The notes: generated from the letters alone by a model not told the origin. Numbered from the stretch's first letter, positions 807-63,690 are shown. The stretch: DNA of 64,000 nt from an uncultured virus (IMG/VR IMGVR_UViG_3300025168_000070) (IMGVR_UViG_3300025168_000070), one strand, 5' to 3'. Numbers and translations: made by a program.

Positions 807-1096
807 GTCAGTTGGTAGGCATACACGCTAGAAGGCGGGTCAAGAGTCCCGCTATGGAATGCGGTTCAAGGTGGTTGCTAGATAGAGAAACACCGTGTAC
901 TGCTAGGGCAGTTTACGAAAACATGACTTTCAAAAATGGCAGACCATACAAATCTAGTAGGTATGCAATTACATACGGGCAGTTTCTAAGCAGAGCGTTG
1001 CGTAGCCGAGCATTCATCAGGACTACGGCTGTGGGTGTCAAGCCTGTGTTGTTTACTAGCAACGAAGACTCATACAATACATTCAGGAGTGATTGA
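803..1096 (+). CDS. hypothetical basic protein
   Basis: ATG at 803 overlaps upstream stop (ATGA), with GGAGG RBS; ORF track start is 785. Confidence 0.55.
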   Translation: MSQLVGIHARRRVKSPAMECGSRWLLDRETPCTARAVYENMTFKNGRPYKSSRYAITYGQFLSRALRSRAFIRTTAVGVKPVLFTSNEDSYNTFRSD

Positions 1097-1162
1097 ATAT
1101 GAAAGTAAAACAAATGTACTACAATCAAGGAACGATATACCAACCAAAGGAGATGAAAGATA

Positions 1163-1750
1163 ATGAATGAAATAGGATATTTAATGAATACAGACCACAG
1201 AGATAGCCCAATGGCGATACCAAACAAAAAAGGACATGAGAATGCTCTAGCAATTGTCGTTGGTAAAATGTTAGGACATAAGGTAGCATACACCTACGAG
1301 TATAATGGTATGATGTTGCCGGACCCTGTTGATGGTACACCAAGAGAAGTACAGTACATTATGTATGGACCACAAGATGATATGGATATTCCTTACAACG
1401 AACCCCTAGCAACCTTCATTACATCATGGGAAGGTTCATCTGACACATTCCTAAGAGGTAGGGTGTTTGTTATGACCAAAGAAACCAACGGTGAAAAACT
1501 CGATGTAAAAGTATTTCAAAAAGCATACACTATTATTAAATATAAATTACTGGAAATGGAAATGGAAGAAAATATAATTCTAAAGAAATTGAAAGAAGGA
1601 GGCCATGATGTATCTATATTAGAAGATATAATGAAAGACCACTTCCTTTATGGTAAAGAACCTGATTTAACAAAATTGAAAGATTTAGATATTCCTTTGG
1701 AGTCGTTGCTAGACGTACTACGAATGATGAACGGAGATGATGAACAATGA
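1163..1750 (+). CDS. hypothetical protein
   Basis: 195 aa ORF in a tightly packed operon. Confidence 0.7.
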   Translation: MNEIGYLMNTDHRDSPMAIPNKKGHENALAIVVGKMLGHKVAYTYEYNGMMLPDPVDGTPREVQYIMYGPQDDMDIPYNEPLATFITSWEGSSDTFLRGRVFVMTKETNGEKLDVKVFQKAYTIIKYKLLEMEMEENIILKKLKEGGHDVSILEDIMKDHFLYGKEPDLTKLKDLDIPLESLLDVLRMMNGDDEQ

Positions 1751-2520
1751 ATACAGAATGGATACATGAAATAGTACAGGAAATGAAAGAAGATGAACAT
1801 GATACTTTTGAATTATTGATAAGGATAATAGAAGAATTACCTATGCCTTTACATCCAATATATGGTATATATGCTATGGAGCCACAATCAAAGCAACCAA
1901 GTATAATACCTGATGTATTAATAGATAATTATTCGATGATTGACATTTTTACACTAGATAAGTTAATAGAAACTTGTTATAGTGATATACGACATCGAGG
2001 TTATTTCCCTGAAAGTTTAGTTATGACTTGTACTATGATGCTATTTGAAAGAAAAGTAGTAATGGACTATGGGGATGGTTCGTTAATGCCAAACGAAGGA
2101 CCTATGAAAGTACATACATCGTTGCTAGTACCTTATCACTTAGATGCAACACATAAGGAGATGGTGGATATTACGTTGGGATGTGCTAGGAGAGTCTCGC
2201 AACGAGCAGTACAGACATTCGCAGAAGTAAATGTGAAAGGTTTCGCAACCGACCCTAGAGGATTCATAAGTATAGACGGAGAACTAGTACCGGATGAAAT
2301 ACAATTCTTCCTAAACTTCTTAGCCGATAATACAGAAGAGATGGGAGGAATCAAGCAACGGAAAGACGGTAGGCCACTTGAAGAGTTAATTGAGGAAGGT
2401 ATACAAGAACACATGGAGACTTTCGTTGATGTTCCCGAAGACTATAAAAACACCGGTATGTTTGAGTTAGATGTGGACCCTGATTCAGAAGAAAACAACG
2501 ATGAGGTAGTAAGATGGTAA
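1747..2520 (+). CDS. hypothetical acidic protein
   Basis: 257 aa ORF, ATGA overlap with upstream gene. Confidence 0.7.
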   Translation: MNTEWIHEIVQEMKEDEHDTFELLIRIIEELPMPLHPIYGIYAMEPQSKQPSIIPDVLIDNYSMIDIFTLDKLIETCYSDIRHRGYFPESLVMTCTMMLFERKVVMDYGDGSLMPNEGPMKVHTSLLVPYHLDATHKEMVDITLGCARRVSQRAVQTFAEVNVKGFATDPRGFISIDGELVPDEIQFFLNFLADNTEEMGGIKQRKDGRPLEELIEEGIQEHMETFVDVPEDYKNTGMFELDVDPDSEENNDEVVRW

Positions 2521-3074
2521 GTCATAAGACAAAAATACTTAGTATCGAGTTAATCCCTAGCAACTCATTTGGCAACAACCTACGCTCACTCTTGCGTGGT
2601 TGCACATGGGACCGTTTGCGTAAGGATTGTTATGAAAAGGCAGGTCATGTCTGTGAGATTTGTGGTCAAACAGGTAAGCAACAAGGCAGGAAGCATAATG
2701 TCGAATGCCATGAGATATGGGATTACAACGACAGCGAAAGAATACAAACACTCTTGGGATTACAAGCGTTATGTCCGTTATGCCACCAATGCAAACACAT
2801 AGGCAGAAGCCTATCAGTAGGAGCAGGTCGCCCAACGGTATCACACCTAGCAACAATCAATGGTATGGCGTGGCAGGAGACAGAGGACTACATCAACGAG
2901 AGCCTAGTCGAACATACATTACGCTCACATGGGGATGCTTGGGTACTCGACCTTTCCCTCCTACTTAGCAACGATGCTCTTACAGAGCAAGACATCTCCG
3001 ACCTACCTTATGATATAGAAGGGGTTTTTATAGGGAGGTTGGGTCGGATAACCAACGGAAGTGAAAAAATATGA
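2514..3074 (+). CDS. HNH-like endonuclease
   Basis: W..LR...Y......CEICG ... ECHEIWDY ... LCPLCHQCKH: Zn-binding beta-beta-alpha-Me pattern. Confidence 0.75.
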   Translation: MVSHKTKILSIELIPSNSFGNNLRSLLRGCTWDRLRKDCYEKAGHVCEICGQTGKQQGRKHNVECHEIWDYNDSERIQTLLGLQALCPLCHQCKHIGRSLSVGAGRPTVSHLATINGMAWQETEDYINESLVEHTLRSHGDAWVLDLSLLLSNDALTEQDISDLPYDIEGVFIGRLGRITNGSEKI

Positions 3075-3337
3075 ATAAAGAAAAAAATGAATATGAAAAG
3101 ACGGTATTGATAGATGCGTTAGGTGTGAGTGTTATCGCATTACAGACGTACAGGGGTTTGGTACGAGCAACCATTCACCTGTTTACGACTCTTAGCGAAG
3201 AAGCAAACGACCCACTACACCAACAGTATGTGGATTCGTACACTAAATTATCAGAAATAGACGGAATTATTGGTGCTGAAATATCTGAAAACGATATGGT
3301 TGCTGAATTACTGCGAAGCATGGAGGAAGAAGAATGA
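3071..3337 (+). CDS. hypothetical protein
   Basis: ORF with upstream TTTATAGGG promoter-like box and RBS. Confidence 0.65.
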   Translation: MNKEKNEYEKTVLIDALGVSVIALQTYRGLVRATIHLFTTLSEEANDPLHQQYVDSYTKLSEIDGIIGAEISENDMVAELLRSMEEEE

Positions 3338-3630
3338 AACAGACAGGGCAGATAGTAGTATCTTGGTCTAGCAACGATGAAAATGAATTGAACGCATTTT
3401 ACAATTTCCTACACCGCAACGCTACCTGTATAACTCGTATAGCACTTGGTCAAACAATGTGCATGATATATCTCAAGTTATGGGGATGTACTACGGAGAT
3501 AGTATACGAAGTTAGAAACTTTAAGGGAACCAACTTCGCTCATCGGATGCGTGATTTAGCAACAAGAGGTAGCGCACAATACAAGATAACATTCCATCAA
3601 ATGGGACCAATAACGGAGGAAGAAGAATGA
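3334..3630 (+). CDS. hypothetical protein
   Basis: coupled by GGAGGAAGAAGAATGA junction. Confidence 0.65.
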   Translation: MKQTGQIVVSWSSNDENELNAFYNFLHRNATCITRIALGQTMCMIYLKLWGCTTEIVYEVRNFKGTNFAHRMRDLATRGSAQYKITFHQMGPITEEEE

Positions 3631-3923
3631 ACAAAAAAAGAATAGTGGAAATAGAAAGAGGCGACCTTTTAGGAGGTCTAGAAACGACAAGCGGAACAAC
3701 ATACCTACGGGTTGGAGACATAAGTGCAATAACGGTACGTGATAAAACACATGAGTCCGTTCATGGTACAGGTTTAGTGGACCACCTAGAGATAGACATA
3801 CACATGGCAACAGGTACTATATTTACTCTCATGGGTGGCTTAGACTCACTAGCGGCTCTCAACATACCTATCACAGTAGTGGAAGCGAATGGAGATAGAT
3901 ACGGAGGTGAGTTAAGTGAGTAA
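3627..3923 (+). CDS. hypothetical protein
   Basis: coupled by GGAGGAAGAAGAATGA junction. Confidence 0.65.
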   Translation: MNKKRIVEIERGDLLGGLETTSGTTYLRVGDISAITVRDKTHESVHGTGLVDHLEIDIHMATGTIFTLMGGLDSLAALNIPITVVEANGDRYGGELSE

Positions 3924-4062
3924 TATAGACCAAGACTGGCAGATACTCCAAGCAACTATTAGATTAGGAGAAGTTATTCAAAGACTTCAAGATGCTAAGG
4001 TGAGTAAAAAATTACAGAACAGAGCAATACGGTTGCTTAAAGATTTGGAGGCTTTAGAATGA
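3916..4062 (+). CDS. small helical protein, 48 aa (not in ORF track)
   Basis: GGAGGTGA RBS then GTG; MSNIDQDWQILQATIRLGEVIQRLQDAKVSKKLQNRAIRLLKDLEALE*; stop overlaps next ATG. Confidence 0.6.
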   Translation: MSNIDQDWQILQATIRLGEVIQRLQDAKVSKKLQNRAIRLLKDLEALE

Positions 4063-4367
4063 GTGGTGAAAGAGCATCATTCGATGACGATGATAGTAAA
4101 GACGAATTAATCCAAAATATATTTAATGAGGCTGTTAGTGATTGGGTTGCTACATTAGGATACAGTATAAATGGCATTAGTGATATTTTCCTAGATACAT
4201 TAACAACACAGACTATGTGGGTGAGACAAGTAGGCAACCCCACACTTGAGGATACAGATATAAACGTGCAATACGCACAAGAGTCGTTATCAGACCTAAG
4301 AGAGATGGCAACCGATGAAGCAAGAGCAGAGTGGTTAGACGTTATGGGTGATGAGGGACATGAGTAA
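4059..4367 (+). CDS. hypothetical acidic protein
   Basis: ORF with GGAGG RBS, ATGA overlap. Confidence 0.65.
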   Translation: MSGERASFDDDDSKDELIQNIFNEAVSDWVATLGYSINGISDIFLDTLTTQTMWVRQVGNPTLEDTDINVQYAQESLSDLREMATDEARAEWLDVMGDEGHE

Positions 4368-4749
4368 GTACGAGAAGTACACAATAGTACCTAGCAACGC
4401 AGGTGATGGCGACCTATTGATATACAAAGGCGAGAGTAAATTACCTGTCTCTGATGTCAGAACACTAGGCAACATACTCTTGGAGAAAGATATGCCCGAA
4501 GATTACTACAAGGATGCTTATGAGTTGCTAGACGATATGGGTATGTGGATTATACTAAACACATATGCGTTTAGGAAAAGCGACCCGAAAAGAGTTGCTA
4601 GTGTATTAGCAGACCCTAGACTAACCTGTGCATCGTTGGTATTTGCACACCTAACAGGTCGAGATACATACATATTCAACAACGGATACAGTATGCGACC
4701 AAATCCTAAACTATTCAATATCAAAAACGTCAAGGGGTTGCTAGAATGA
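4360..4749 (+). CDS. hypothetical protein
   Basis: ORF in operon; ATG at 4360 preferred over 4348. Confidence 0.6.
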   Translation: MSKYEKYTIVPSNAGDGDLLIYKGESKLPVSDVRTLGNILLEKDMPEDYYKDAYELLDDMGMWIILNTYAFRKSDPKRVASVLADPRLTCASLVFAHLTGRDTYIFNNGYSMRPNPKLFNIKNVKGLLE

Positions 4750-4973
4750 GAGCCAAAACAATCACTCACGTTGAGTATGAGATATTGACATGGTTGCTAC
4801 ACAACATAGAGTTGGATGAATTGAAACATTCAATGTGTCCTGTTGGGGATACCTTTGCAGAAGAAAGATTCAAAAAGGGGGCAACATCCTCGGTTAAATT
4901 GATACAGAATATGTGCGATAGGAGAAAACACAAACTACCAACCGAACATCCTGATTACGAGGTGAAACAATGA
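4746..4973 (+). CDS. hypothetical protein
   Basis: ATGA-coupled ORF. Confidence 0.6.
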   Translation: MRAKTITHVEYEILTWLLHNIELDELKHSMCPVGDTFAEERFKKGATSSVKLIQNMCDRRKHKLPTEHPDYEVKQ

Positions 4974-5542
4974 ATATATTCATACTAGACGAAAACCCAA
5001 TATATGCTGCTAAAATGTACTGCGACAAACACGTACCTAAAATGGTCGTGGAATTATTACAACAACTTGGCTCTGCGGTCATACGACACGGTGCTACACC
5101 CGACATGATGCCGCTTACAAAGGCCGGTAAGCCGCTACGTGGGGGATACCACAATCACCCTGCGACCCGTTGGGTGGGTGAATCTCGCAATAACTTCATT
5201 TGGGCTTGTTGTCATGCAGCCATGTTATGTGATGAGTACACTAAGAGATTCGGTAAGATTCACTTCTGCGAAACAGGTATAGAACATCTATTCACTATGC
5301 AAGAAATTATACCCGAAGGCAACCTTACACCTTACGCTCTGTGTATGCCCGATGAGCATAGACCCGACTACATCCATGTAGCAAGTCATCCGTTCGATGT
5401 CATTACAGATGAGGGCGGTAATAAAATCACTCATGCCACAGGAAACTTAGCAGTTGCAGCATACCGTGATTACTACCACACTAAGACATTCGCTGAATGG
5501 AACAAGAGCCGTGATGCTCCTGAATGGTGGGGTGGTTGCTAA
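4970..5542 (+). CDS. pyrimidine-dimer DNA glycosylase / endonuclease V (DenV-like) family protein
   Basis: MNIFILDENP..AA..YCDKHV.KM..E..Q.L, HNHPATRWV, and C-terminal AYRDYY..K..A.W...R..PEW, typical of this viral family. Confidence 0.8.
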   Translation: MNIFILDENPIYAAKMYCDKHVPKMVVELLQQLGSAVIRHGATPDMMPLTKAGKPLRGGYHNHPATRWVGESRNNFIWACCHAAMLCDEYTKRFGKIHFCETGIEHLFTMQEIIPEGNLTPYALCMPDEHRPDYIHVASHPFDVITDEGGNKITHATGNLAVAAYRDYYHTKTFAEWNKSRDAPEWWGGC

Positions 5543-5724
5543 TGAAAGTACACGAATTGGCCGCATTGTTAAACGATATTGCTTTACAAACCCCTGATTA
5601 CGAGGTATCCGTTGCTTTCCGTTGGAAAGATGACACCGTTATATCAGACGTTGTTAGCCTATGTTATAACGGGGAAAGTATACAACTAAATGAAGAAACA
5701 TTTGAGGCGCATTGTAATGAATGA
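5542..5724 (+). CDS. hypothetical protein
   Basis: ATG overlapping upstream TAA. Confidence 0.55.
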   Translation: MKVHELAALLNDIALQTPDYEVSVAFRWKDDTVISDVVSLCYNGESIQLNEETFEAHCNE

Positions 5725-6025
5725 AAATTACGATGTTGTGTATGGCACACCAATGTATCATAGTTGGACTACTAGGACCGTTGGTAAGGGAGACTATGCC
5801 CGTACTATACGAGTTAAACAATGTGATATGCTAGAAGAGGGCTCATGGCCGCAGCAGTACCTTAGCAACGAAGCCGCACTAAAAATCAAAGCCTGTCCTA
5901 AATGTGTACTCGCAGGTTTCGCAGTACCAATACCAATACCAATCAAGTACACACCAACGGTTGGTAAAGAAAAGACGGTCAAAACTGGCGGTTTATTTCT
6001 AATAGACTATTTAGATAGCAACTAG
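5717..6025 (+). CDS. hypothetical protein with CPKC motif
   Basis: ORF in operon; start uncertain (5690 or 5717). Confidence 0.55.
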   Translation: MNENYDVVYGTPMYHSWTTRTVGKGDYARTIRVKQCDMLEEGSWPQQYLSNEAALKIKACPKCVLAGFAVPIPIPIKYTPTVGKEKTVKTGGLFLIDYLDSN

Positions 6026-6037
6026 GTTTATATGGAG
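6025..6037 (+). promoter_or_regulatory. viral TATA-type promoter GGTTTATATGGAG (representative copy)
   Basis: similar boxes with TTTATA at 3027, 6027, 7082, 12270, 13832, 16456, 19853; several lie 29-30 nt before an ATG. Confidence 0.65.
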
Positions 6038-6055
6038 AACCATTACACACTATAA

Positions 6056-6140
6056 ATGGAGGTCGGGTTTTAAACAACAAGGGTTTTTTCTATTGTCCCT
6101 TATCTCAAGTCATTTTGTTATTCCTCCCCCGACCTCCACA
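6056..6140 (+). ncRNA. candidate small structured RNA
   Basis: 29 nt downstream of promoter box; 11-bp terminal inverted repeat TGGAGGTCGGG/CCCGACCTCCA; only a 5-codon ORF. Confidence 0.4.
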
Positions 6141-6178
6141 ACAAACCATTGAAGTATTAGCAATCATTAGGTCTGTAT

Positions 6179-6910
6179 ATGAGACATCCGTTGCTCTTTA
6201 GTGGCAACTACATTCTGACAACGCCTGAATTGATTGAAGTAGTTGATTTCAAGGCTTGGAGAAAAATATCCAATGCAAAAGAATACAGAAAAAGAAGAAG
6301 ATTTTCACCTTATTTAATTTTAAAGACGGGAGATACGTTGCTAAAATTAGTAGGATATAGTGCTGTTTGGGATTTCTTAGACGCAATTCAACCTAAACTA
6401 CCGAGAATACCAATAAACTCAGTAATGAAAGGTTATGATTTCTATGACGAAGAAACAATGTCGTTTCTAGAAGAGGTTGCTTGGTTCATTATAGAAAGTA
6501 AAATACCGTTTGTAGGATTTGAGATAGATGAAAATGGATTGGCAAGAGTTGTGAAAAAGCCTGTTGCTAACATCCCAATAAACAGTAAGAAGTATGCTGG
6601 TAAAGCAGAATTGACTTTGCTGGATGGGGAAAATTACTACGTTGCTTTGCTGGAAACAAATGATAAACAACGTAATTACTACTGTTATTGTATGGGGATG
6701 GGTGTAAGGCCGTTGTTAGGAAGAGTGTTCGATAATATAGATGAAGCACAAGAATATGCGATAGAGGCGAAGAACAAAGTATCGGCAATAGAAGCAGTAG
6801 GAAAGACACTAGTGATACGCCATAATATGTTCGATGAAGAAGTGGATTTGTTAGAGAATGAGTTATTCTTTTTGTTAAATGAAGAAAATAAAAAACAAAT
6901 TAATGCTTAG
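6179..6910 (+). CDS. hypothetical protein
   Basis: 243 aa ORF. Confidence 0.7.
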   Translation: MRHPLLFSGNYILTTPELIEVVDFKAWRKISNAKEYRKRRRFSPYLILKTGDTLLKLVGYSAVWDFLDAIQPKLPRIPINSVMKGYDFYDEETMSFLEEVAWFIIESKIPFVGFEIDENGLARVVKKPVANIPINSKKYAGKAELTLLDGENYYVALLETNDKQRNYYCYCMGMGVRPLLGRVFDNIDEAQEYAIEAKNKVSAIEAVGKTLVIRHNMFDEEVDLLENELFFLLNEENKKQINA

Positions 6911-6911
6911 T

Positions 6912-7074
6912 AGTACAACGGTTTTCTAATTCTTTCTATTCCCTATAAGGTGTTAAGGTAAATATATACCAATGCAATACTCAATATACCCCTTGAAGTA
7001 TTGAAAGAATAAAAAAAAGGTTGTACTGAAAGGAAGTAATTAGTTAGAAATGAATCAAAAAGAATGAAAAGAAT
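6912..7074. repeat. AT-rich imperfect palindromic element, copy 1
   Basis: arms 6912-6950 and 6991-7027; reverse complement aligns with 58612-58776. Confidence 0.75.
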
Positions 7075-7119
7075 AGTTCGGTTTATATGGAGAGGAAGAT
7101 ACCGTAGGTATGAGACAGT

Positions 7120-7464
7120 ATGGCAAGAGGACAAACGAAACGAGTACAGGCTACGATATATCACTATCTAGTCGAACAAGACGAACCAATGAACACATTA
7201 CAACTAACGGAATACTACAATACATACAAACATAAGAACCCTTCACACACGAAGGGACAGAATCATGGTACTACCGCTAGAAGACTAGGAGGAGTGATGG
7301 CCGCTAGTCTGTTGTTTGAGAACGTATTTACACAAGGGGGATACAACTACTGGGAAGCAAGACCTATCGAAGTCATAATAGAGAGAGCGATTAAGTCTAG
7401 AACAAACCCCAAAAAATATCCACTATTCCTTAGATTACTAATTGAGGAGAGGATACAAGAATGA
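7120..7464 (+). CDS. winged-helix DNA-binding protein
   Basis: IYHYL....PMNT.QL...TARRLGGVM...F...YW pattern. Confidence 0.55.
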   Translation: MARGQTKRVQATIYHYLVEQDEPMNTLQLTEYYNTYKHKNPSHTKGQNHGTTARRLGGVMAASLLFENVFTQGGYNYWEARPIEVIIERAIKSRTNPKKYPLFLRLLIEERIQE

Positions 7465-8198
7465 GAGAAACCGCAAACGATGTTGATATTTATTGGGAAT
7501 CAGAAATAGAGGGTAGTATTAGCAACGTAATAGTATTATGTTCGCAGGAACCATGCCCTATTCCAAACATACTTACCGAATCACTAGAGGAAGAAGGTAA
7601 GGTACTAGCAACAGTATTTTCAAAATTGGATAGAGTACAGCCATTCTTTGAATCCGATTCAATCGTAGGAACCAAGATAATTCAATACGGAGATAAATTG
7701 GTTGTTAATTTTAGAGGCTTCCATCCAATAGTTAGTGGGAATCATTGGTTGTTTGGTTATCCCGTTGTTAGAGAAGCGATAGAATCTATCTTAGATAAAA
7801 CTAATGTTGACTCTTTAACAATACTTACATCCACTATTTACACTAGCCAACCGAATTACGATGAGAAAAAGGATTGTACCTACTATACTATGACTTACCC
7901 TGAATGGACTGATATAGAAAGAGAGAGTAAAGAAGTCTTGCCGTTGTTTGCTTACATGACAGGTTGGTTGTCTAGTATAAGAGACATACCAACAACGATA
8001 GTTTTATTCAAGGCAGCACTAGATAATATTATGACACAACAAATGTTTGCAGATGGTGTTGGTCTATTCCAAATCTTATCCTTACCTGTAAACATAAAAG
8101 AGGCACAAGAGTTATACGACGAACATGAATCCGAGGTAGGTATGATAACCAGTATGCTGAGTAAAGGTGATGTTAGTAGTGGGGGTATGTTCTCTTGA
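7461..8198 (+). CDS. PAC2-family (PbaA/PbaB-like) proteasome assembly chaperone homologue
   Basis: size and pattern fit: ..ILDKTNVDSLTIL.., RDIPTTIVLF, LSLPVNIKEAQE..E..E, C-terminal GMFS resembling the HbYX tail. Confidence 0.5.
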   Translation: MRETANDVDIYWESEIEGSISNVIVLCSQEPCPIPNILTESLEEEGKVLATVFSKLDRVQPFFESDSIVGTKIIQYGDKLVVNFRGFHPIVSGNHWLFGYPVVREAIESILDKTNVDSLTILTSTIYTSQPNYDEKKDCTYYTMTYPEWTDIERESKEVLPLFAYMTGWLSSIRDIPTTIVLFKAALDNIMTQQMFADGVGLFQILSLPVNIKEAQELYDEHESEVGMITSMLSKGDVSSGGMFS

Positions 8199-9529
8199 GT
8201 GATAAAGATATATTCGATGACTTACAGGCATTTTGTGATGCTAACCATTATGTATCGGTTGAAGATAAACTACCTATATTTATTTGTAGTATTGGGGCTC
8301 ATTTATTCAATGCTATCAACAAATGTTCCCGTTGCGATTTCACAGTTGAGAATCCAGTTGATGGTTATTTCTCAATCCCCAATTGTCCGTTGCGACATGA
8401 CAACGGCCCCATCTATACTCCGATGTCTAGGTTGGCTGACACTAGGGTTCACATACTCATGCGTGGAAAGAAAGGTTCAGGGAAGAACGTGTTGATTGAT
8501 TTGTTTTTAGCGGAAGGTACAGGATTGATATGGAATCCCGAAGGCTTCAACGGTATTGGGTTTAGGACTATGATTGGTGCTAACTCTATCACAGAAGCAG
8601 GGTTGTTTGGTAGTGTAAACGAAGAAGGTTATGTCGCAGGTCGCCCTGTTGCTAGAGAGTTATGTGGTGGCTTCTTAGGATTTGAAGAGTTTTCATCTCT
8701 TACTGACGCTACTAAGAAAGACCATAGTATGGATATGAAGAACCAGTTGCTAACCAGTCTAGATAGTGGTCGTGTCAACAAAGGTATGAGACATGGTTGG
8801 GTTAGATACAACACACGTTATACTTGTTGGGCGGGTACGCAACCGGCTAGGTTTGAGTTAGAGTCGGGTCTTGATAGAAGATTCTTCATTATAGAAATAG
8901 AAATGACTCCTAAAATAGAATTAGAATATAAGATAGCACAGAACAAACAGGCTAGAATGTCTCCAAAAGAGAGAGCAGACTTAGCAACAGAGGCTATGCA
9001 CATGAGAGGTTGGTTCTTTAAGAGAATGGAAGAATCCATTTTGAATCCACCTACTAGTGTTTCATTTGCACCGGCTTTTGAAGAGTGGGTGTTGCGTGAT
9101 ACTGTAAGGTCGTTTGAAGCAGACTTATTCAGGAGGTTAGCGATAGGTTATGCTATGATGCAACCTAATTACGAAGGTGGTAAGCCGTTGCTTGTTGATA
9201 TTGATGAAAGATTAGGGTTAATATTGAGTCAATCATTGACCATGAGAAGAACAGTTATGGATGCTGATGTTGCTTTAATCAAATCAATGTATTGGAATCA
9301 GGATATACCGAAATCAACCTTGTTGAAAGAGATTGCTAGAATAATTACCAACGGTGATTACCAAAGTGCAAAGCGTTGGGTGGAAGAAAACTTAGTAGGG
9401 GAGATGTGGTATGAAGAACATACACCGAAAGTAGTGGGTAAGAGAGGCAGAAGAGGTGTCTCTTGTAGGATAGGAGAAAAGCAACCGGAACCTGATGAGC
9501 ATTATGCTAGTTGGGGGAACGGTAATTGA
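8195..9529 (+). CDS. MCM-like AAA+ ATPase / probable replicative helicase
   Basis: HILMRGKKGSGKN Walker A, SITEAGLFGSV, GGFLGFEEF Walker B, AGTQP sensor 1, LDRRF Arg finger; CSRC..CPLRH Zn insert. Confidence 0.75.
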   Translation: MSDKDIFDDLQAFCDANHYVSVEDKLPIFICSIGAHLFNAINKCSRCDFTVENPVDGYFSIPNCPLRHDNGPIYTPMSRLADTRVHILMRGKKGSGKNVLIDLFLAEGTGLIWNPEGFNGIGFRTMIGANSITEAGLFGSVNEEGYVAGRPVARELCGGFLGFEEFSSLTDATKKDHSMDMKNQLLTSLDSGRVNKGMRHGWVRYNTRYTCWAGTQPARFELESGLDRRFFIIEIEMTPKIELEYKIAQNKQARMSPKERADLATEAMHMRGWFFKRMEESILNPPTSVSFAPAFEEWVLRDTVRSFEADLFRRLAIGYAMMQPNYEGGKPLLVDIDERLGLILSQSLTMRRTVMDADVALIKSMYWNQDIPKSTLLKEIARIITNGDYQSAKRWVEENLVGEMWYEEHTPKVVGKRGRRGVSCRIGEKQPEPDEHYASWGNGN

Positions 9530-11846: not shown

Positions 11847-11874
11847 TATAGTCTTACTTTCCTGCTATTTCTGT

Positions 11875-12276: not shown

Positions 12277-12299
12277 GGACATCTTTGCCGTAAAAGGTT

Positions 12300-12929: not shown

Positions 12930-12931
12930 AT

Positions 12932-13876: not shown

Positions 13877-13882
13877 ATTAAT

Positions 13883-51523: not shown

Positions 51524-51557
51524 AACCATTTAATCACCTGTAATTAACTAACTATGC

Positions 51558-52460: not shown

Positions 52461-52474
52461 ATCTAATCATCTCC

Positions 52475-54903: not shown

Positions 54904-55021
54904 GATTGTCGCAGTATTCCACTAACTTATCAACTTTATGAAACTTAAGGTAGTTTATCGGGATTAATGAACATAAACGCTAGGATAAACAACCCCATCA
55001 TAAAACAACAGAAATCAATCA

Positions 55022-56193: not shown

Positions 56194-56254
56194 TATACCA
56201 CCACACCTATTAGTTTAAGAAAAAACACAAAGATAGGATGTCCTTCGTAATTCA

Positions 56255-56782
56255 TTACTTTCTTGCATCCTTTACCTTGCCGTTGGTAATTTGGTATGCT
56301 TCCATATCTAAAGTGTGTTGTTTTTGCATCTTTTCCATTTCTAGGTCATGCTTCATTTTAAACTCTTCCAACAGTCTTACGTGTGTCTTTTCAGCGTCAG
56401 TTGCTTGAACATCGGCTGAAAGCCTGTCAGGTAAAACTGCTATTTTAGCACTTTCTTTACCTTTGAATAAATCTAGTACACTTGTTATAATAAGTAGTGC
56501 CGGACCACCTAATAGTCCTATAACTGTAAGTTGTGAATCTGATATATCTCTTTGTTCAACAATACTAAAGTATGATGCTGTTGCCGCTATGACAACCCAA
56601 GCCATAACTACACCCATACCAAAAGTCAACATAAGAGTTTCATTAGGATTAGTCATTTTCATCTGTACCACACTCTTTACAGGAGGTCTTTGATTTATCA
56701 ACTTAGCCCCTAGCAAACCTAACATAAATAACCCACCATATATACTTATTAACAATATTATATCTGTCTCATATTGATTCAT
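56255..56782 (-). CDS. multi-pass membrane protein
   Basis: three hydrophobic segments and a C-terminal coil. Confidence 0.65.
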   Translation of the reverse strand: MNQYETDIILLISIYGGLFMLGLLGAKLINQRPPVKSVVQMKMTNPNETLMLTFGMGVVMAWVVIAATASYFSIVEQRDISDSQLTVIGLLGGPALLIITSVLDLFKGKESAKIAVLPDRLSADVQATDAEKTHVRLLEEFKMKHDLEMEKMQKQHTLDMEAYQITNGKVKDARK

Positions 56783-58248
56783 TCAGTTGTCTCCAAGTCA
56801 TCTTGTGCTGGCTCCTCAACCTCTTCCTCTTCTATATCCGGTGTTGTATCTTCAACTCCGGGTTGTGAATCTCTTCTTGGTAGCCTACCAGTAGGTGCGC
56901 CACCTTCCTCATCCTTTCTAATATCTCCTGATGTTCCAATATCAGGTTCTCCTATTACTTCTAACGCTTGGTTTAATGTTAACAAACCTGAATTATAGCC
57001 TAATACAGACCTTTGCATACGCACACTAGGAGATTCATCCTCGACTGGAGAAAACTCTAATTTAGGTATATCTTTCATTTGGTGTTCTATACCCATCAAT
57101 TCTAAATGTTTTGAAAACATATCTTGGATTGATTGGGCTAATATTCCTTGTAGTCTCTTAATTGCAGTAGTAGCCCACACGTTAGCGTTATATGTAGCCG
57201 CAAACGTGGAACCTCTTTCCTGCCCTGCTGCTACTCTTGGGACTTGTAGTACAGCCGCTATGTCTGCATTTACAGTATCTAAGAATGATGTATTGTCAGG
57301 TATAGTGTTTCTAGTATCAGTATGGTGTATTTCTATATAATCAGGGAATATAGGTACTTGGTCTCCTCTAAGGGATTCTAAGGTTTTTACTACCTCATCC
57401 ATGATAAAAGTAAGTCTTGCTCTTTGTTCATCAGGGTCGCTTATGTGTTCAATGGCAGAACTGTTAATGGTTATAAACTGCTTAGTCATTGACTCTTCCA
57501 AAGCCATTCTGTTGTTCAATGTGTTATATTTTGCTCTTATTGCTTGTTTTAACGAAGAAAACCTAGATGCTCCCCAAATACCATAAGTCTCTCTGTTTTC
57601 AGAATCTAAGAACCAATTGCTTCTATAATCTATCCTAATATGTAAAATCTCATCAGCATTGAATTGTTCCTCTGTTGAATCTCCTTCTCTGATAATATAT
57701 GTGGTTGCTTCGACAATTGGGTTCATCCTATCTGTTTGTTCTGTACTCGGCCTACCATCAGTTATTGTCATTTGTGATATAGGTAATGATTGAACCTGTG
57801 TTATACCTACTCCTGTCCTACCAACAAGTTTACTCATGTCATTACCGTACACCATCAAGTTTCTCATACCGTTAATAAGTATATCATCAAAGTCTATTGT
57901 TTCTTCGACTAACATCCTTATACCTTCTCTTAGTTTAGCATTCTTAGCAGTTTTATAGTTTATTTCGTAATTGTTCGCAGTTAAAGATACTGCACGTACA
58001 GCACCGTTCAATTCAGGGTCTAACTCTAACATTGAATCATATATATCAAAGTCAGTAGTAAAATTAGTATTTGCTCTCAAACGGTTGCTTTGGCTCATAA
58101 TATCGCTAAGACCAGCAGCAGCCGCAAGAAGTAAAGGATTTTCGCTAGAATCAGCCCTTCGTGCGTTAGCCCATCCGCTTGCGATGTTTATTTCACTTTT
58201 TTCGGAGATATTTTCCGTTCTTCCGAGTATTCTGTCGAATAATCCCAT
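56779..58248 (-). CDS. portal protein
   Basis: YD.M...DPEL.GAV, L.VYGN, EILHIR, IAAVLQVP, GLLTLNQA; position upstream of head genes. Confidence 0.85.
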   Translation of the reverse strand: MGLFDRILGRTENISEKSEINIASGWANARRADSSENPLLLAAAAGLSDIMSQSNRLRANTNFTTDFDIYDSMLELDPELNGAVRAVSLTANNYEINYKTAKNAKLREGIRMLVEETIDFDDILINGMRNLMVYGNDMSKLVGRTGVGITQVQSLPISQMTITDGRPSTEQTDRMNPIVEATTYIIREGDSTEEQFNADEILHIRIDYRSNWFLDSENRETYGIWGASRFSSLKQAIRAKYNTLNNRMALEESMTKQFITINSSAIEHISDPDEQRARLTFIMDEVVKTLESLRGDQVPIFPDYIEIHHTDTRNTIPDNTSFLDTVNADIAAVLQVPRVAAGQERGSTFAATYNANVWATTAIKRLQGILAQSIQDMFSKHLELMGIEHQMKDIPKLEFSPVEDESPSVRMQRSVLGYNSGLLTLNQALEVIGEPDIGTSGDIRKDEEGGAPTGRLPRRDSQPGVEDTTPDIEEEEVEEPAQDDLETTE

Positions 58249-58285
58249 ATTTGCTAGAGATTGTCAATGCCTTATCATCCTTTCG

Positions 58286-58561
58286 CTAAAGCATTTGATA
58301 AATAATAAACAATATCATACCCATACCACCAGTAGTTTGTGCTACTCTCTTGGTAATAAACCGGTCTAAACTGTAAACAGGACCATCTAGTATCTTTTCT
58401 TGGTTGTTTTTAACTACGCCAAGTGAAGTTTCGACTTCACTCAATCTTAATCCGTGAGTTGAATGTTCCTTCTGTTGTTCTCTTAATACGGTTTTAATAT
58501 CTGAAACATCATCTCTTACTAAATCTAACCTTGCCATTACAGCAAGTGTGGCATCATCCAT
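58286..58561 (-). CDS. coiled-coil protein with C-terminal TM helix (holin-like?)
   Basis: RL..VE coil and hydrophobic tail. Confidence 0.5.
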   Translation of the reverse strand: MDDATLAVMARLDLVRDDVSDIKTVLREQQKEHSTHGLRLSEVETSLGVVKNNQEKILDGPVYSLDRFITKRVAQTTGGMGMILFIIYQML

Positions 58562-58611
58562 TATTCAACAACAAATCACTTCGATATATCACTCTTTAGT
58601 TGAATGTATGT

Positions 58612-58776
58612 TTTTATTCTTTTTGTTGTCAAAATTAATAAATACAAATTACTTGCTTTCAGTACAGCGTTTATTTTATTCTTTCATTACTCTATAAGAC
58701 ATTTAGAGATTTATACTACCCCCTTTTACTAAAATACCTTATAGAGTATAAAAAGAATTAAAAAATCGTTATACTG
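58612..58776. repeat. AT-rich imperfect palindromic element, copy 2
   Basis: arms 58660-58698 and 58738-58776; homologous to the reverse complement of 6912-7074. Confidence 0.75.
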
Positions 58777-58857
58777 GTCTAAAGTAATCTTTCTGAATTA
58801 ATTAAAAACAACAAAAACAATTAAAGTTAATAAGGCATCCCTTTCTTAGTACGGTAT

Positions 58858-60090
58858 ATGGGAAGGGGCTCAAGCATGAAACCATCCGAATTGCAGATAA
58901 TACGAAAACACCAAGAAGACTGGCATGAATTAGGTTCAGATACAGCATTTGCTAGGTATCTGAGTAGTGTTTATGATGATAAGTCAACAGAGGCTTGGCG
59001 TTGGCAGGTACGGACCTTTAGAAAAGATTTTTCCGATGAAGTACCTGAAACATTCTATGGTAAGGCTAGTAAACTAGATAACTTTATTCCTAAATCTTGG
59101 GAAGGTACTGCTAGTAGTTTATCTAGAAAATTACACGCAGAACATCCTGAGATAAGTGTTAAGGCTTGGGAGGCTAGAATACACAATGCTAAACATAACA
59201 ACGCAATAACTATCATTGAAAAGAATGAGTTTACTACTACACATCTAAAAGGTATGTCTCAAGGTATAGAAGATTTATGGGCTTCTGTTGAAGAGTTATC
59301 TTCAAAGAGTATTAATAATATGGAAAGTGCTAGATGGGCTGAAATAACATTCAATACCAAAGGGTACATAGGTGTAGCACTAGCAAGCGACCAACATATA
59401 GGTAATAGTTATACGGACCACGCACGTATGCGTGAAGATGCTGAATTAGTCCGTGATACAGATAATTGCTTTGTTATCCACGCTGGAGACTTTATTGACA
59501 ACTTTATGATTGACAAACCAAGACCTGCTATGAAACAAAAAATCCCTCCGTCTGTTCAATGGAAGTTATGCGACCATTACCTAGATATGTTTGAAGATAA
59601 GATATTAGCCGTAGTAGCGGGTAATCACGACCTTTGGACTAGTGGTGCAACAGACTACGACCCTCTTGCTAAAAAAGTAGCAGACTTGGATGTCATCTAT
59701 CACGCCCACGAATTGAATATTCGTCTGTTAGTTAACAATATCCCCTATAACTTCTCTATTAGACATAAAAGAAGAGGTAATTCAGCACTTAACCCTGCTA
59801 GAGTAATTAAAAAGATGTGGGAAGACGGAGAGTGTGATTTCGACATAGGTGTAGTAGGTCATCACCATACACCAGTAATAGAACCATTCACAAGACATGG
59901 TATGGAGCGTTGGGCTATTAGGCCGGGTTCATATAAATTAATAGACAGTTTTGCTGAAATGATTGGTTTTCAGAAAGAAAGGGCTACCTGTCCTATGGTT
60001 ATACTATCCCCTGATAAAAGAAGCATACAAGTATTCTCAGATTTAAGAGATGGCGTTGCTACTCTAAAAACACTTAATGGTGGTAAATAA
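58858..60090 (+). CDS. calcineurin-like metallophosphoesterase with duplicated N-terminal HTH-like repeats
   Basis: SDQHIG, GDFIDN, GNHD, RHK, GHHH. Confidence 0.85.
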   Translation: MGRGSSMKPSELQIIRKHQEDWHELGSDTAFARYLSSVYDDKSTEAWRWQVRTFRKDFSDEVPETFYGKASKLDNFIPKSWEGTASSLSRKLHAEHPEISVKAWEARIHNAKHNNAITIIEKNEFTTTHLKGMSQGIEDLWASVEELSSKSINNMESARWAEITFNTKGYIGVALASDQHIGNSYTDHARMREDAELVRDTDNCFVIHAGDFIDNFMIDKPRPAMKQKIPPSVQWKLCDHYLDMFEDKILAVVAGNHDLWTSGATDYDPLAKKVADLDVIYHAHELNIRLLVNNIPYNFSIRHKRRGNSALNPARVIKKMWEDGECDFDIGVVGHHHTPVIEPFTRHGMERWAIRPGSYKLIDSFAEMIGFQKERATCPMVILSPDKRSIQVFSDLRDGVATLKTLNGGK

Positions 60091-60320
60091 TGAATGAAGG
60101 TTGGGCGACAGACGACTCCTGTGTTGTAATAGGAGAATCTCACGATGACGAAGATTCATTAGTCATTTGTTTGATTGATGAACATGGTTCTATGATGTCT
60201 GCCATATTAGAAAGGTCTGAAATAGAAGGCTTAGTTGATTTTATGGCTGAATGGATAGGTTATCCCTTAATATTGAATAGTAGTAAAATAGGTGGTTATG
60301 ATGACTGGTCTAATGAGTAG
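60090..60320 (+). CDS. hypothetical acidic protein
   Basis: TAATG-coupled ORF. Confidence 0.6.
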   Translation: MNEGWATDDSCVVIGESHDDEDSLVICLIDEHGSMMSAILERSEIEGLVDFMAEWIGYPLILNSSKIGGYDDWSNE

Positions 60321-61809
60321 TTTTAATTTACAAAGAAGTAAATACGACCATCAACACTTTTACGAATGGTTAGGTTATACTTGGGGTAATCACATAGGTG
60401 ATTGGTTTGAGTTATTTAACGATAGAAAAGGTTCGCAAGTACACCGTGTATTATTGATAGCACCAAGAGACCATAGTAAATCCACTACATTAAGAGTCAA
60501 AGCATTACATTCTGCTTTGTTTGAAAAATGGCGTAATAAACCTTTTACTACTTGGTTGTTCTCTGCTAGTAAAGACCTAGCGGCTAATAGGTTAGAAGAA
60601 ATAAGAGAAGACATGAGAAGACATCCTGACCTATCTAAAATGTTAGATGAGAAGCGTGGCGGTAAATGGGAGTTGCGTTTGACTAATGGTTCTTGGATTA
60701 AAGCCTCATCAGTAGGTTCTGCTATTCGTGGTGAACATCCTGCTCGTATTATCCTAGATGACGTTCTTGATGATTCAGGAGATATGTCTGATGATGTAGT
60801 AAGAAATTGGTTTCGTAAGAAAATGACTCCTATGCTGAGTCCTGATACATCTATATTTGTAGTAGGTACTCCATTAGCCCTTACAGACCTATATCATACA
60901 GAAATGTTGAACAATCAGGCTTGGAAGACTTGGAAGGAAGGTAGTATCTTAAATTACGATGAGTGGTCTAAAGACCCCGATAATGTTATCCCCGAATGTC
61001 TATGGCCTGAATATAGAAGTGTTGAGTTTCTTTTAGAGCAACGTGTTGCTATGGGTGAGTTAGCCTTTTCACAAGAGTACCTATGTAGGGTAGTTGATGA
61101 TGACTCTGCTGTATATCCTTCAAGAATGACTAGAAAAAACTTAGATATGGATGCTATACTAGAATATGATAAGAAACATACTTCTAGATATGTTATTGGT
61201 TTTGACCCTTCACATGGTATAGGTAAAGATTATAGCGTTATGGTTGTGTTAAGGCAAGATACAGAAGGGTTCTTACACGTTGTTAATATTTGGAGGCATA
61301 ATGATTTTGAACCTAGTAAACAAGCAGACGAAATTATTAGGTTATGTTCTCTATATAAGAATCCTGTGTTTGCTGCCGAGTCTGCTGGTTTTCAGAGGTT
61401 GTATCAAGCGTTGCTATTAAACAAAGGAGCCAATGTTGATTATAGAGCAAGTCCAGTACAGAACAGAGTTATGAAGCAATCACTACTTATGAGACTAAGA
61501 AGTTGGTTTGAACAGGGTAAAATTGTTATCCCCTATGGAAACGACCATACTAGAAAGATAATGAATGAGATGTTAGAAGAGTTAGAGACTCATGCTTGGG
61601 ATGGGGGCATCATTGTCGATAAAGGTAGGCATAACGATATTGTTATGGCTCTTGCTCATGCTGTGGACCAGTTTCAAAGTAAGCAAGGAAACACCTCTCC
61701 TATGGTTGGAGGTAGTGCTTCTGTTGGTTCTTGGGGTAAATCTAAGGATGAACCTAGAGGTAAACCTCATAGAGACTCTAACTCTAGGTATGTTAGGTTT
61801 AGACTTTAA
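60292..61809 (+). CDS. terL: terminase large subunit
   Basis: APRDHSKST Walker A, RGEHP, IILDD Walker B, VGTP, FSQEY, GFDPS..DYS, HNDIVMA nuclease; start uncertain (60298-60313). Confidence 0.92.
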   Translation: MVMMTGLMSSFNLQRSKYDHQHFYEWLGYTWGNHIGDWFELFNDRKGSQVHRVLLIAPRDHSKSTTLRVKALHSALFEKWRNKPFTTWLFSASKDLAANRLEEIREDMRRHPDLSKMLDEKRGGKWELRLTNGSWIKASSVGSAIRGEHPARIILDDVLDDSGDMSDDVVRNWFRKKMTPMLSPDTSIFVVGTPLALTDLYHTEMLNNQAWKTWKEGSILNYDEWSKDPDNVIPECLWPEYRSVEFLLEQRVAMGELAFSQEYLCRVVDDDSAVYPSRMTRKNLDMDAILEYDKKHTSRYVIGFDPSHGIGKDYSVMVVLRQDTEGFLHVVNIWRHNDFEPSKQADEIIRLCSLYKNPVFAAESAGFQRLYQALLLNKGANVDYRASPVQNRVMKQSLLMRLRSWFEQGKIVIPYGNDHTRKIMNEMLEELETHAWDGGIIVDKGRHNDIVMALAHAVDQFQSKQGNTSPMVGGSASVGSWGKSKDEPRGKPHRDSNSRYVRFRL

Positions 61810-62129
61810 AATGCAAGTATAGCAACAATAGCATCGTTACCGGGGTCTCCTGAGAATACAACAGTTACAGCGTTGTCTCCAGTAGCCTTTGCGGTTTTTA
61901 TGGTTATGTTGTTAGTACCATCGTCTTTTAGGGTTGCGATAATCTTAGAAGCAGTAGTTACTCCAGCAACAGTTAGTGCTTCGCTTGCAGCACCTCCGGC
62001 TGTTGTTACTTCCACAGCGTAATCCGCAAGTACATTAGTTACAGCACTTGATAAGTCTGCTGTATCCACTCCACCATCTTGTATGTGGTGTCCCATTATT
62101 ACATTTTTCAGTTGTCGGTTCTTTGGCAT
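61806..62129 (-). CDS. small Ala/Thr/Val-rich probable virion protein
   Basis: 107 aa beta-rich ORF convergent with terL. Confidence 0.6.
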   Translation of the reverse strand: MPKNRQLKNVIMGHHIQDGGVDTADLSSAVTNVLADYAVEVTTAGGAASEALTVAGVTTASKIIATLKDDGTNNITIKTAKATGDNAVTVVFSGDPGNDAIVAILAF

Positions 62130-62382
62130 AACATATCGTCATGTTCTCTGATATATGAAGATTTTGTAAACTTTATAATCTTTTATAGGGGATTTAGTGG
62201 TTTTGAAAAAAAATAAAAAAAATAACGAGAGGGGGTTGGCGTACTACTGGGTCCACTAGGGTCCCATTTTTGGCCCTAATTTTAGTATAGATTCTTCGGT
62301 TGCTAAATCGAGAAAAACGCTGTACTGAGAGCCTATTAGTCGGTTGCTAAGTGTTAAAAACTAGGATGGTGTCCGAAGAATC

Positions 62383-62886
62383 ATGGAGTTTACAAAAACA
62401 CCCGCAGAGGATGATACCGATAATACGACTAGGGAGGACCCCTTAAGGGGTCCTGACCTTGAAAGACCTGACTTCGGTCCGGCAATTTTTGACCTAGTTT
62501 CAGGAAATGTGTTCAAAGTACCCGTCGAACACTCCTCGATTCAGGCCCTTGAACACTTTAGTGTTCATTTCGATGCTGACCCCACTTCCGAAGAGGCTCA
62601 GTTGCTAATACAGGTTTTAGATAATGACGGCTATTATCAGACAGGTTTTATCTCAATTACAGACTTAGAAACGTATGACTGGGACGCTATCGACCTGATG
62701 CTTGAAGAACTGGTATATCACGATAATTGCGACCAATTTACATCCGTTTTCTGTGCAGAAACGGCGATTGAAGCCCTCGATGATTGGACGGTTATGGTTG
62801 GTCAAATTATGACTAGTGGAATCGCTGTACTGCTCGACTATATCGGCGATTATGATGACCATACGTCGGTTGGTTCTCTATACTGA
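62383..62886 (+). CDS. hypothetical very acidic protein
   Basis: 167 aa ORF. Confidence 0.6.
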   Translation: MEFTKTPAEDDTDNTTREDPLRGPDLERPDFGPAIFDLVSGNVFKVPVEHSSIQALEHFSVHFDADPTSEEAQLLIQVLDNDGYYQTGFISITDLETYDWDAIDLMLEELVYHDNCDQFTSVFCAETAIEALDDWTVMVGQIMTSGIAVLLDYIGDYDDHTSVGSLY

Positions 62887-63690
62887 AAGTATAGAGGAAG
62901 GAACTGGGTTCAGTTTGGCTAGAACCGACTGGATTCAGGACCTTCCTACTAACCCCTAAAGGGGTTAACAACGGACTTTTTACCCTTACCTTCGGTATCG
63001 GTCCAACAATTTTCGGTTGCTAACTACTATGCTTTTTCAATACCGAAGGTATTGGTAAGATATAGTAAGGCCGGTTTTTCTCAGAGATTTTTCTCTCTTT
63101 AGAGAGTCCAAGCAATTTTGGCTATTTTCTTGAAACTAGTTGCTTTAGTTAATATTGAATCGTGATTCAATCGTTTTTACCATTGGTCAAATCTTGCTAT
63201 TTAGATATTGACTGAAAGTCATCCGATTAATAGAGTTTTTTTTGGGTCCGGTCAATTAACTATATTATCAGATAATATAGATAATTGGTTTAATTTTACT
63301 GCTAAAAATGGCTTCAAAAACAATCATCTCGCACGTAGGACTCTCGCACGGGGGGAGACATCAGAAGTCCCTGCGTGGAGTCCGTGTGCGCCACCTATGT
63401 CTCTAAGATTGCCGAAAAAACAAACATCTTGCGTGTGTTCTCCTGTGTACTCTCAGCGTGAAGATATTCTTTAGAATATCCGTGTGGAGTCGTTGCTAGA
63501 AACGGTGCGTATATTTTAATAGACTAAAGTCTAGTAAAATGGTATCCGTGCGCTAAATACCTACTGAGGTATTTTGACTGAAACTTTTGCTCATTTTTTT
63601 TGGTTGATAACTGGAGCAGAGCCAAAAGACGCACGTAGTCTAGTACTAGACCGATACTCTTTTAGTGCGTAGGCCTCTGCGAATAGAACG

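Follow-up and report, generated by a model that had tools for sequence, protein, structure and literature searches.

A short DNA word maintained genome-wide by selection in a lineage of marine tailed viruses, and a candidate viral winged-helix protein that may read it

The record IMGVR_UViG_3300025168_000070 of IMG/VR, a stretch of 64,000 nucleotides from an uncultured virus (hereafter the window, meaning the whole of the stretch analysed), carries 124 exact copies of the heptamer GTTGCTA or its complement TAGCAAC. Examination of these copies in the window and in related genomes revealed that selection acts strongly, at the level of the DNA, on both the number of GTTGCTA copies and their retention, and that this heptamer is the form taken locally by a six-letter word, TTGCNA, of which four dialects exist across the clade. 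Among the records compared, the word is confined to viruses with a small winged-helix protein, here named A1, and a set of nuclease and kinase genes. We tentatively favour, at somewhat less than even confidence, the reading that the word is a selected self-mark read by the viral A1 protein. No earlier report of the word or of the phenomenon was found in the open-access literature, to which the search was confined.

Over-representation of GTTGCTA in the window

The 124 copies, 74 on the plus strand and 50 on the minus strand, span positions 217..63498. Dinucleotide shuffles (n=100) gave a mean of 8.8 copies (standard deviation 2.7) and a maximum of 14, in agreement with the original prediction, made by a model from the sequence alone, of about 120 copies at an excess of about 15-fold. 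All the copies it had named by position were located, although the first lies at 217 and not at 874, as was the stretch devoid of copies that it had placed at 54.0-60.0 kb (none between 54002 and 60055). Markov expectations ranged from 8.3 (order 0) up to 99 (order 5), the high-order figures being uninformative because the word's own sub-words feed the model. The word is sharply defined: each of its 21 one-mismatch neighbours has at most 40 copies. It is preceded by C in 47 copies and by G in 38 (85/124 together, the frequent C or G noted earlier) and followed by A or G in 83/124, and the flanks otherwise carry little information.

Gene calling yielded 68 open reading frames (ORFs) covering 94.7% of the window. 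Inside genes, 118 copies were observed against 18.1 +/- 3.7 (maximum 26) in 200 synonymous-codon shuffles preserving all proteins and the codon usage of each gene, so that the earlier claim that codon or protein bias fails to explain the word is upheld; a codon-order shuffle gave an expectation of 12.0 +/- 3.5. The strictest null model was a synonymous-swap chain that preserves codon usage gene by gene and excludes the 50 words absent from the window; its 12 samples held 32-42 copies, a figure that takes in the intergenic and gene-overlap copies, which the chain leaves untouched. The distribution among frames 0/1/2 was 35/1/28 for sense copies and 0/18/35 for antisense copies, the antisense zero frame being a TAG stop. 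Every stop-free frame is thus used on both strands, as had been claimed. Where a synonymous change of codons would suffice to write the word, the opportunity was taken in 113 of 232 cases (49%), against 0-17% for 25 control words of the same composition. This occupancy was 58% in the early and replication genes, 41% in the tail genes and 17% in the head genes.

The word shows no preference for the direction of transcription (64 sense and 53 antisense copies) or for non-coding DNA, since 7 of the 124 copies fall in the approximately 5% outside the ORF calls. Such freedom of orientation is as expected of a double-stranded DNA site. Spacing is Poisson-like, with a coefficient of variation of 0.98 over 0-37 kb, and inverted pairs number only two among the 124 copies, 9-10 bp apart and both within genes, at 29042/29051 and 36233/36243, where they had been predicted. 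From 1 to 23 kb the density is about 3 per kb, and it falls in the tail and head genes, which matches the contrast previously described between the replication and structural halves. In clade X (defined below) the word is dense in the early and replication genes and in a gene of 2318 amino acids (aa), and sparse in the tail-fibre and head genes; in G16, a clade Y genome, its density is even, with no gradient. A polar signal of the type of Chi or KOPS (FtsK-orienting polar sequences) had also been suggested and was not supported: when four complete genomes were rotated to the terminase gene and divided into 5-kb bins, orientation was mixed with no consistent strand polarity, and a sister dialect, TTGCAA, is a palindrome. 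Strand counts of TTGCTA were 123:101 in G12 and 118:108 in G13.

Selection on individual sites

A 69,335-nt IMG/VR record, G001 (G1 below), is 99.96% identical to the window and served as its complete-genome stand-in. The genome G002 (G2 below; 70,452 nt) is 76-85% identical to the window in long collinear blocks (about 82% overall) and holds 153 copies of GTTGCTA against 16 of the reversed control word. In the aligned DNA, 83 of 114 window sites (73%) have an intact copy at the corresponding position of G2, against a background retention of 34% for 56,694 aligned 7-mers and 35% for 2,779 of the same composition.

The unshared sites comprise 31 present only in the window and 40 present only in G2. 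Among the 69 scorable ones inside genes, 51 are accompanied by an amino-acid difference, where controls with equal numbers of base changes predict 41.4. Moreover, gains or losses by a single base were non-synonymous in 16/25 cases, as opposed to 31.5% of matched controls. This excess indicates that proteins are sometimes bent to accommodate the word. Together with the null models and the use of synonymous opportunities, retention in G2 bears out the view that selection maintains the word as a signal in the DNA itself.

Dialects of the word and rewriting of sites in place

The complete genomes compared include G2, G12, G13, G16 and G18; G3 is a fragment, and L denotes locus records. Identities in brackets are those of the family-B DNA polymerase (PolB). 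The four dialects are as follows.

G1, G2 and L183: GTTGCTA; 142 and 153 copies per genome, and 36 in the 11-kb locus L183
G12 and G13 (PolB about 75% identical): TTGCTA; 224 and 226 copies, against 38 and 31 of the control word
G3 fragment and complete G18 (PolB about 63%): the palindrome TTGCAA; 81 copies against 8 expected, and 213 against 20 expected
Clade Y, complete genome G16 (PolB about 50%): TTGCGA and TTGCTA; 132 and 133 copies, against 29 and 41 expected

The clade Y loci likewise show TTGCGA and TTGCTA each enriched about 4-6-fold. Across dialects TTGC and the final A are invariant, and only the fifth letter and the flanks vary: G stands before the word in just half of the G12 and G13 copies, clade Y prefers T over G in that position, and the TTGCAA group prefers A or T two bases out on either side. 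TTGCAA itself is absent from G1, G2, G12, G13 and G16, with 20-23 copies expected in G1, G2 and G16. In a protein-guided codon alignment, 73-76 TTGCAA sites of G3 could be aligned, and 11-16 of them coincide with TTGCTA or TAGCAA in G1, G2, G12 or G13, against 0.3-0.6 for shifted controls. Such exact alignment between dialects indicates that the sites are orthologous and were rewritten in place.

Relatives outside the word-bearing clades hold 6-14 copies of GTTGCTA per genome and show no excess of TTGCNA, and protein-guided codon alignment found no counterparts of the G1 sites in G4, one of these relatives. A scan of IMG/VR for three copies within 30 nt returned, among the matches listed, mostly local tandem repeats; genome-wide spread was seen among them solely in the clade's own record, and in none of five other records checked whole, a comparison that does not measure the prevalence of the word.

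Several other short words were noted in these records. TTGCCA, one letter away from the clade word, occurs once in G13 and is absent from G18 (about 31 expected), from which the shorter word TGCCA is itself missing. The 12.7-kb locus L193 (PolB 53% identical) carries 36 copies of the palindrome TCGCGA, against 7.5 expected, in 12 of its 13 kb bins. GCAGAC or AGCAGAC is mildly enriched (for example 28 against 5.8) in loci lacking both the word and A1, including L200, L223, L226, L227 and L247.

A candidate winged-helix reader

The gene whose distribution drew attention as that of a possible reader is the following.

10740..11003, plus strand: A1, an 87-aa predicted winged-helix protein, candidate reader of the word on the basis of its structure model and of its co-occurrence with the word

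The AlphaFold2 (AF2) model of A1 (predicted local distance difference test, pLDDT, 80) comprises three helices and a beta-hairpin. Its best Foldseek matches are the DNA-binding domains of Zur and Fur, at a weak E of 2e-3 and a template modelling (TM) score of 0.67; the other top PDB matches listed are winged helices of Cdt1, RbkR, BlaI and PadR type, with E of 2e-3 or weaker, and the sole Pfam match, to Crp helix-turn-helix, is also weak (E 0.0015). The original prediction had likened the word to the RFX half-site, a likeness that found no support: no RFX entry stands among the Foldseek matches listed for the A1 model, although no search aimed at RFX membership was made.

A1 was present in all 14 of the TTGCNA-enriched records in which its presence could be judged, and a metagenome scan with A1 added at least two loci. 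It was absent from all 16 non-enriched records: the genes that flank it elsewhere lie there -1 to 63 nt apart and leave no room for it, against a gap of 194-835 nt in the records that carry it. A quick PolB tree placed the word-bearing records in clades X and Y and the word-less ones in clade Z, the three forming an unresolved trifurcation. These counts of 14/14 and 16/16 are therefore not independent.

The presumed recognition helix of A1 has V(F/Y)(S/T)VSR conserved throughout, and the residues after VSR vary by dialect. It is the same in all four TTGCTA genomes, GGLTVFSVSRILTG, and reads GGFSVYTVSRFLSM in the TTGCAA group; in clade Y, VYSVSR is followed by W, Y or H and then by LR. From these correspondences we infer that A1 binds TTGCNA. 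The suggestion that small winged-helix proteins are connected with the word thus gained ground through comparative genomics for one gene, that of A1, which is predicted to bind it. As for the five such proteins mentioned in the original prediction, three candidates were seen, at 9526-9855, 10740-11003 and 16196-16501. The distribution of the last is as follows.

16196..16501, plus strand: second small winged-helix-like protein (predicted), found in clade X 5/5, Y 0/6 and Z 0/12

Being restricted to clade X, it is dispensable for the word in clade Y.

Other genes sharing the distribution of the word

Among the 22 genes of the replication module, only A1 and a deoxynucleoside monophosphate (dNMP) kinase fit the pattern X 5/5, Y 6/6, Z 0/12. 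A whole-genome gene profile of the word-bearing G2, G12, G13, G18 and G16 against the word-less G4 and G5 added four further genes.

12300..12929, plus strand: dNMP kinase (Pfam DNMK, 9e-9; phrog_139, 1e-28)
2514..3074, plus strand: HNH endonuclease (phrog_5200, 4e-44), in G2, G12, G13, G18 and G16, not in G4 and G5
58858..60090, plus strand: nuclease resembling Mre11 and the PolD small subunit, of the phosphoesterase type (Pfam Metallophos; phrog_7339, 2e-43), in word-bearing genomes only
6179..6910, plus strand: 243-aa protein, in word-bearing genomes only by the same profile
60090..60320, plus strand: 76-aa protein upstream of the large terminase, in word-bearing genomes only, with no family match

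The 243-aa protein had no family, PDB or PADLOC match, and its AF2 model (pLDDT 51) was unusable. A 51-aa zinc ribbon shows the same profile less surely, with weak matches in G5 and G6.

Avoided words and restriction pressure

The window entirely lacks 50 canonical words of 4-6 letters whose expected count is at least 10. AGCT and GATC are each absent where about 229 copies are expected, and CGCG, all RAATTY, CCWGG, GTAGA, CACTG, GTCAC, CGTCTC, GAATTC, GATATC and TTCGAA also have a count of zero. Avoidance of short words extends to G001, G002, G012, G013, G016 and G018, with sets that differ among relatives; G12, for example, is additionally without ACGT, CTAG and GTAC. GATC and AGCT are at zero in nearly every locus of the family, including relatives without A1. 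Since these relatives avoid the same restriction-type words and yet lack the TTGCNA word, the latter does not appear to be imposed by the host. The loss of TTGCAA in four lineages, beside dozens of missing words, suggests that restriction pressure forced the change of dialect.

Two relatives without A1 carry repeats of another kind. Beyond the terminase gene of G004 (G4; L041), at about 41,950-48,300, lies a dense, mostly single-orientation array in which 84 of the 96 GTTACAA copies of the genome fall in the 40-50 kb bins, 14-30 nt apart, with the consensus TGGTTACAAAAAC. A similar array at about 42,500-50,000 of G005 (G5) holds 47 of 76 TCTACAA copies, with the consensus TTATCTACAAAT. These arrays are possibly iterons, operators or a centromere-like site. 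The likeness of GTTACAA to GTTGCAA was considered and set aside, as G4 has no A1 and its GTTACAA copies lie in clusters instead of being spread out.

The virus and its relatives

The window (39.5% guanine and cytosine, GC) belongs to a tailed virus according to its gene content in Pfam and PHROGs scans. In addition to PolB, the dNMP kinase and the HNH endonuclease, these genes include an RFC-like clamp loader, a PD-(D/E)XK nuclease, an ERCC4-HhH nuclease, tape measure, tail tube, portal and large terminase (TerL), as well as two giant proteins with collagen repeats.

40077-47555, minus strand: collagen-repeat protein of 2492 aa with a CBM_5_12 domain
47593-50526, minus strand: collagen-repeat protein of 977 aa

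The collagen repeats account for the other top 7-mers (CCAGTAG, CAGGACC and others) and for a local rise in GC to 46-51%. The NCBIfam scan of the window proteins gave no match, and searching PDB by phmmer with four replication-module proteins gave nothing usable. PADLOC returned a single weak match, PDC-M38B (E 0.0026), to the gene at 1163-1750. This is part of the region 1163-2520 (plus strand), where two early genes of no assigned function are evolving fast, with 37% and 48% protein identity to G2; most genes show 70-96%.

The group C magroviruses, as described in part of PMC5434244, combine a head-tail module with PolB, a clamp loader, a RadA-like ATPase and nucleases, lack a ligase and have a PolD-exonuclease-like gene within the structural module. 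The window has PolB, the RFC-like loader, a weak AAA_24 match, ERCC4 and PD-(D/E)XK, its Metallophos gene is placed between the head genes and the terminase, and no ligase was found among its proteins by the Pfam and PHROGs scans. An archaeo-eukaryotic primase, MCM and a clamp were not identified among these proteins either. The gene set fits that description of group C magroviruses (PMC5434244), a match of gene content alone, and the magrovirus and MGII host labels of the original prediction are putative.

Megablast of the window against phage records gave no match, and the cultured relatives that tblastn detected with PolB and TerL are all distant (23-25% identity). Contigs with a related terminase, 60-80 kb long, are numerous in the marine data of Tara, ENA and JGI. 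Window positions 10001-20000 are present, at least in part, in runs from 16 marine, seawater or viral metagenome studies. A search of species genomes with the single TerL protein returned no match; with a TerL alignment it returned two related contigs, in bacterial metagenome-assembled genome (MAG) bins of Rhodobiaceae and Opitutales. We treated these bins as uninformative about the host, and the Opitutales MAG is not enriched for the word. A language-model look-alike search found A1-like clusters in Thermoplasmatota, the score being a lead only.

The left part of the G003 contig (L037, 1-8400) carries a T7-type endonuclease I, a DnaG-type primase, a fused Mre11-Rad50-like protein and 5 copies of TTGCAA. 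Nothing corresponding to these 8.4 kb exists in G018, the complete sister genome; they reflect either chimerism of the assembly or the recent acquisition of a cassette. The bacterial-type genes of this contig were consequently not used as evidence of host.

A self-mark and its alternatives

In the reading that we favour, one abundant marine tailed-virus lineage has spread TTGCNA over its whole genome, where selection keeps it. TTGCNA would be the binding site of A1, a predicted sequence-specific double-stranded DNA-binding protein, acting as a monomer in either orientation. With 2-5 sites per kb, viral DNA would be occupied far more densely than host DNA and so be marked as self. The co-occurrence of the HNH endonuclease, the Mre11-like nuclease and the dNMP kinase points to breakdown of host DNA for nucleotides, and the mark would either spare the viral DNA or direct the replication or expression machinery to it. 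Phage T4 provides a parallel for the degradation of host DNA and salvage, with its endonucleases, gp46/47 and gp1, and its own DNA carries a base modification. The word would be the counterpart of that modification for unmodified DNA.

Several points weigh against a self-mark. The binding of A1 to the word, as well as its effect, is our inference, a 6-bp site offers a monomer little specificity, and the degradation of host DNA is deduced from gene names alone. The association of A1 with the word may, given the trifurcation of clades X, Y and Z, represent only one or two evolutionary events. Five or six other genes are co-distributed with the word, and any of them, for instance the HNH endonuclease, could be its reader. 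Finally, the drop in head genes observed in clade X (17% against 58%), lacking in G16, is unexplained by a pure self-mark.

A fuller version of the self-mark is doubtful as a whole. Here TTGCNA and A1 would form a sequence-based system of self and non-self recognition, in which host DNA is shredded by the HNH and Mre11-like enzymes and recycled through the dNMP kinase while the A1-saturated genome is spared. Host restriction of TTGCAA would then have led to some 150-200 sites being rewritten to TTGCTA and to the reader being retuned.

Rather unlikely, in our estimation, is a global transcription switch, in which A1 on dispersed sites would block or time early and middle transcription in the manner of stoperators. 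In clade X, density and occupancy do peak over the early and replication genes and those next to them and reach their minimum in the head genes, and phage repressors with many asymmetric genome-wide sites are described in parts of PMC9283540 and PMC6550527. However, the word is neither oriented to transcription nor preferentially non-coding, the gradient is missing from G16 and the scanned proteins of the window gave no sign of an integrase or a lysogeny module.

Unlikely to a slightly greater degree is a word read by the host, whether a Chi-like signal taming a host nuclease or an uptake or identity word copied from the host. Chi, the DNA uptake sequence (DUS), the uptake signal sequence (USS) and the highly iterated palindrome HIP1 are known genome-wide over-represented words of cells, and DUS and USS have dialects. 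Against a host-read word stand the absence of strand polarity and the existence of a palindromic dialect. Moreover, TTGCNA tracks viral gene content and is lacking in relatives that avoid the same restriction-type words, the Opitutales MAG with a related contig has 427 copies of TTGCTA against 1293 of the reversed control, and the IMG/VR matches listed for three neighbouring copies show genome-wide spread in the clade's own record only.

We give marginally less credence still to a site for replication used on either strand, either for a primase or as a nick site at which the HNH endonuclease would prime synthesis or load a clamp. Each of the two strands carries about one copy of the word per kb, the spacing is Poisson-like, and the HNH endonuclease shares its genome distribution. 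Primase sites of T7 have cryptic 3' bases, and an invariant TTGC followed by a variable and then a fixed letter resembles the layout of a primase site. On the other hand, relatives without A1 have orthologous replication genes and yet do without the word, searches of the window by Pfam, PHROGs, NCBIfam and phmmer against PDB identified no primase, and nicking at inverted pairs 9-10 bp apart would give double-strand breaks.

That the word is a target of DNA modification, made or kept by modification-linked biased repair as has been proposed for HIP1, we consider improbable; a modification mark was among the suggestions of the original prediction. The switching of the word among related genomes, with one palindrome, does resemble the alternate HIPs that Elhai reportedly described in 2015 in related cyanobacterial genomes. 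However, Pfam, PHROGs and NCBIfam detected neither a methyltransferase nor a Vsr-like gene among the scanned proteins (many of the small proteins being without a match), and the wholesale avoidance of restriction-type words speaks against protection of the DNA by modification. No one-mismatch neighbour of the word is specifically depleted, save two that contain words avoided anyway, and biased repair of the Vsr type was rejected on this ground.

Finally, the word can hardly be explained by codon usage, by repeated amino acids, by avoidance of restriction sites or by mutational bias: although GTT, GCT, TTG and CTA are common codons, collagen-like repeats occupy 40-50 kb and avoidance of the 50 words doubles the null expectation from 18 to about 37, the 124 copies far exceed the 32-42 of the strictest null model, use all permitted frames on both strands and are retained at orthologous places at twice the background, and relatives of similar composition hold 6-14 copies per genome.

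Significance and comparison with known systems

Genome-wide identity words are known from cells, and a few temperate phages are known to have dispersed repressor sites. In the present case, a common lineage of marine viruses gives up roughly half of the synonymous choices open to it, along with some amino-acid changes, to a word of 6-7 letters. Coupling the word to A1 turns a word statistic into a testable protein-DNA pair and offers a possible route by which a virus with unmodified DNA could tell its own genome from that of its host. A1 and the density of TTGCNA also provide a marker for sorting metagenomic viruses. Moreover, the rewriting of TTGCAA to TTGCTA would, if true, be a visible arms-race record of a change of code across a whole genome.

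Stoperators, the sites of L5- and Bxb1-type repressors, are 13-14 bp long, number a few dozen, are oriented with transcription and belong to temperate phages. Like them, TTGCNA is a short asymmetric site, dispersed also inside genes and with variants among lineages, and a virus-encoded helix-turn-helix protein, A1, would bind it, its presence and sequence tracking the sites. Parts of PMC9283540 and PMC6550527 describe cluster A mycobacteriophages whose repressors have many asymmetric sites across the phage genome. Unlike stoperators, the sites of the present lineage are 6-7 bp long, number 124 in the window and 142-265 per genome, and are free in orientation; about half of the synonymous opportunities are filled and there is no sign of lysogeny.

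HIP1 and the alternate HIPs are GC-rich 8-mer palindromes of cyanobacterial genomes, linked to cognate methyltransferases. They share with TTGCNA a frequency of about once per kb or more, the use of several frames and alternative words in relatives. In contrast, GTTGCTA in the window is asymmetric (only the dialect of G3 and G18 is palindromic) and tracks a winged-helix gene, and no methyltransferase was found among the window proteins scanned by Pfam, PHROGs and NCBIfam.

The DUS of Neisseria and the USS of Pasteurellaceae, 9-12 nt long, are read by the competence machinery and often form inverted pairs in terminators. The viral word resembles them in being spread genome-wide with lineage dialects one base apart, and differs from them in its core of 6-7 nt with weak flanks, its two inverted pairs that both lie in genes, and its carrier, a virus that looks lytic. 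Chi, an over-represented 5-8-mer recognised by RecBCD or AddAB, is polar and strand-biased and can mark DNA as self to a nuclease. GTTGCTA is likewise over-represented, whereas no polarity was found for it; it is asymmetric, but its orthologous dialect TTGCAA is a palindrome.

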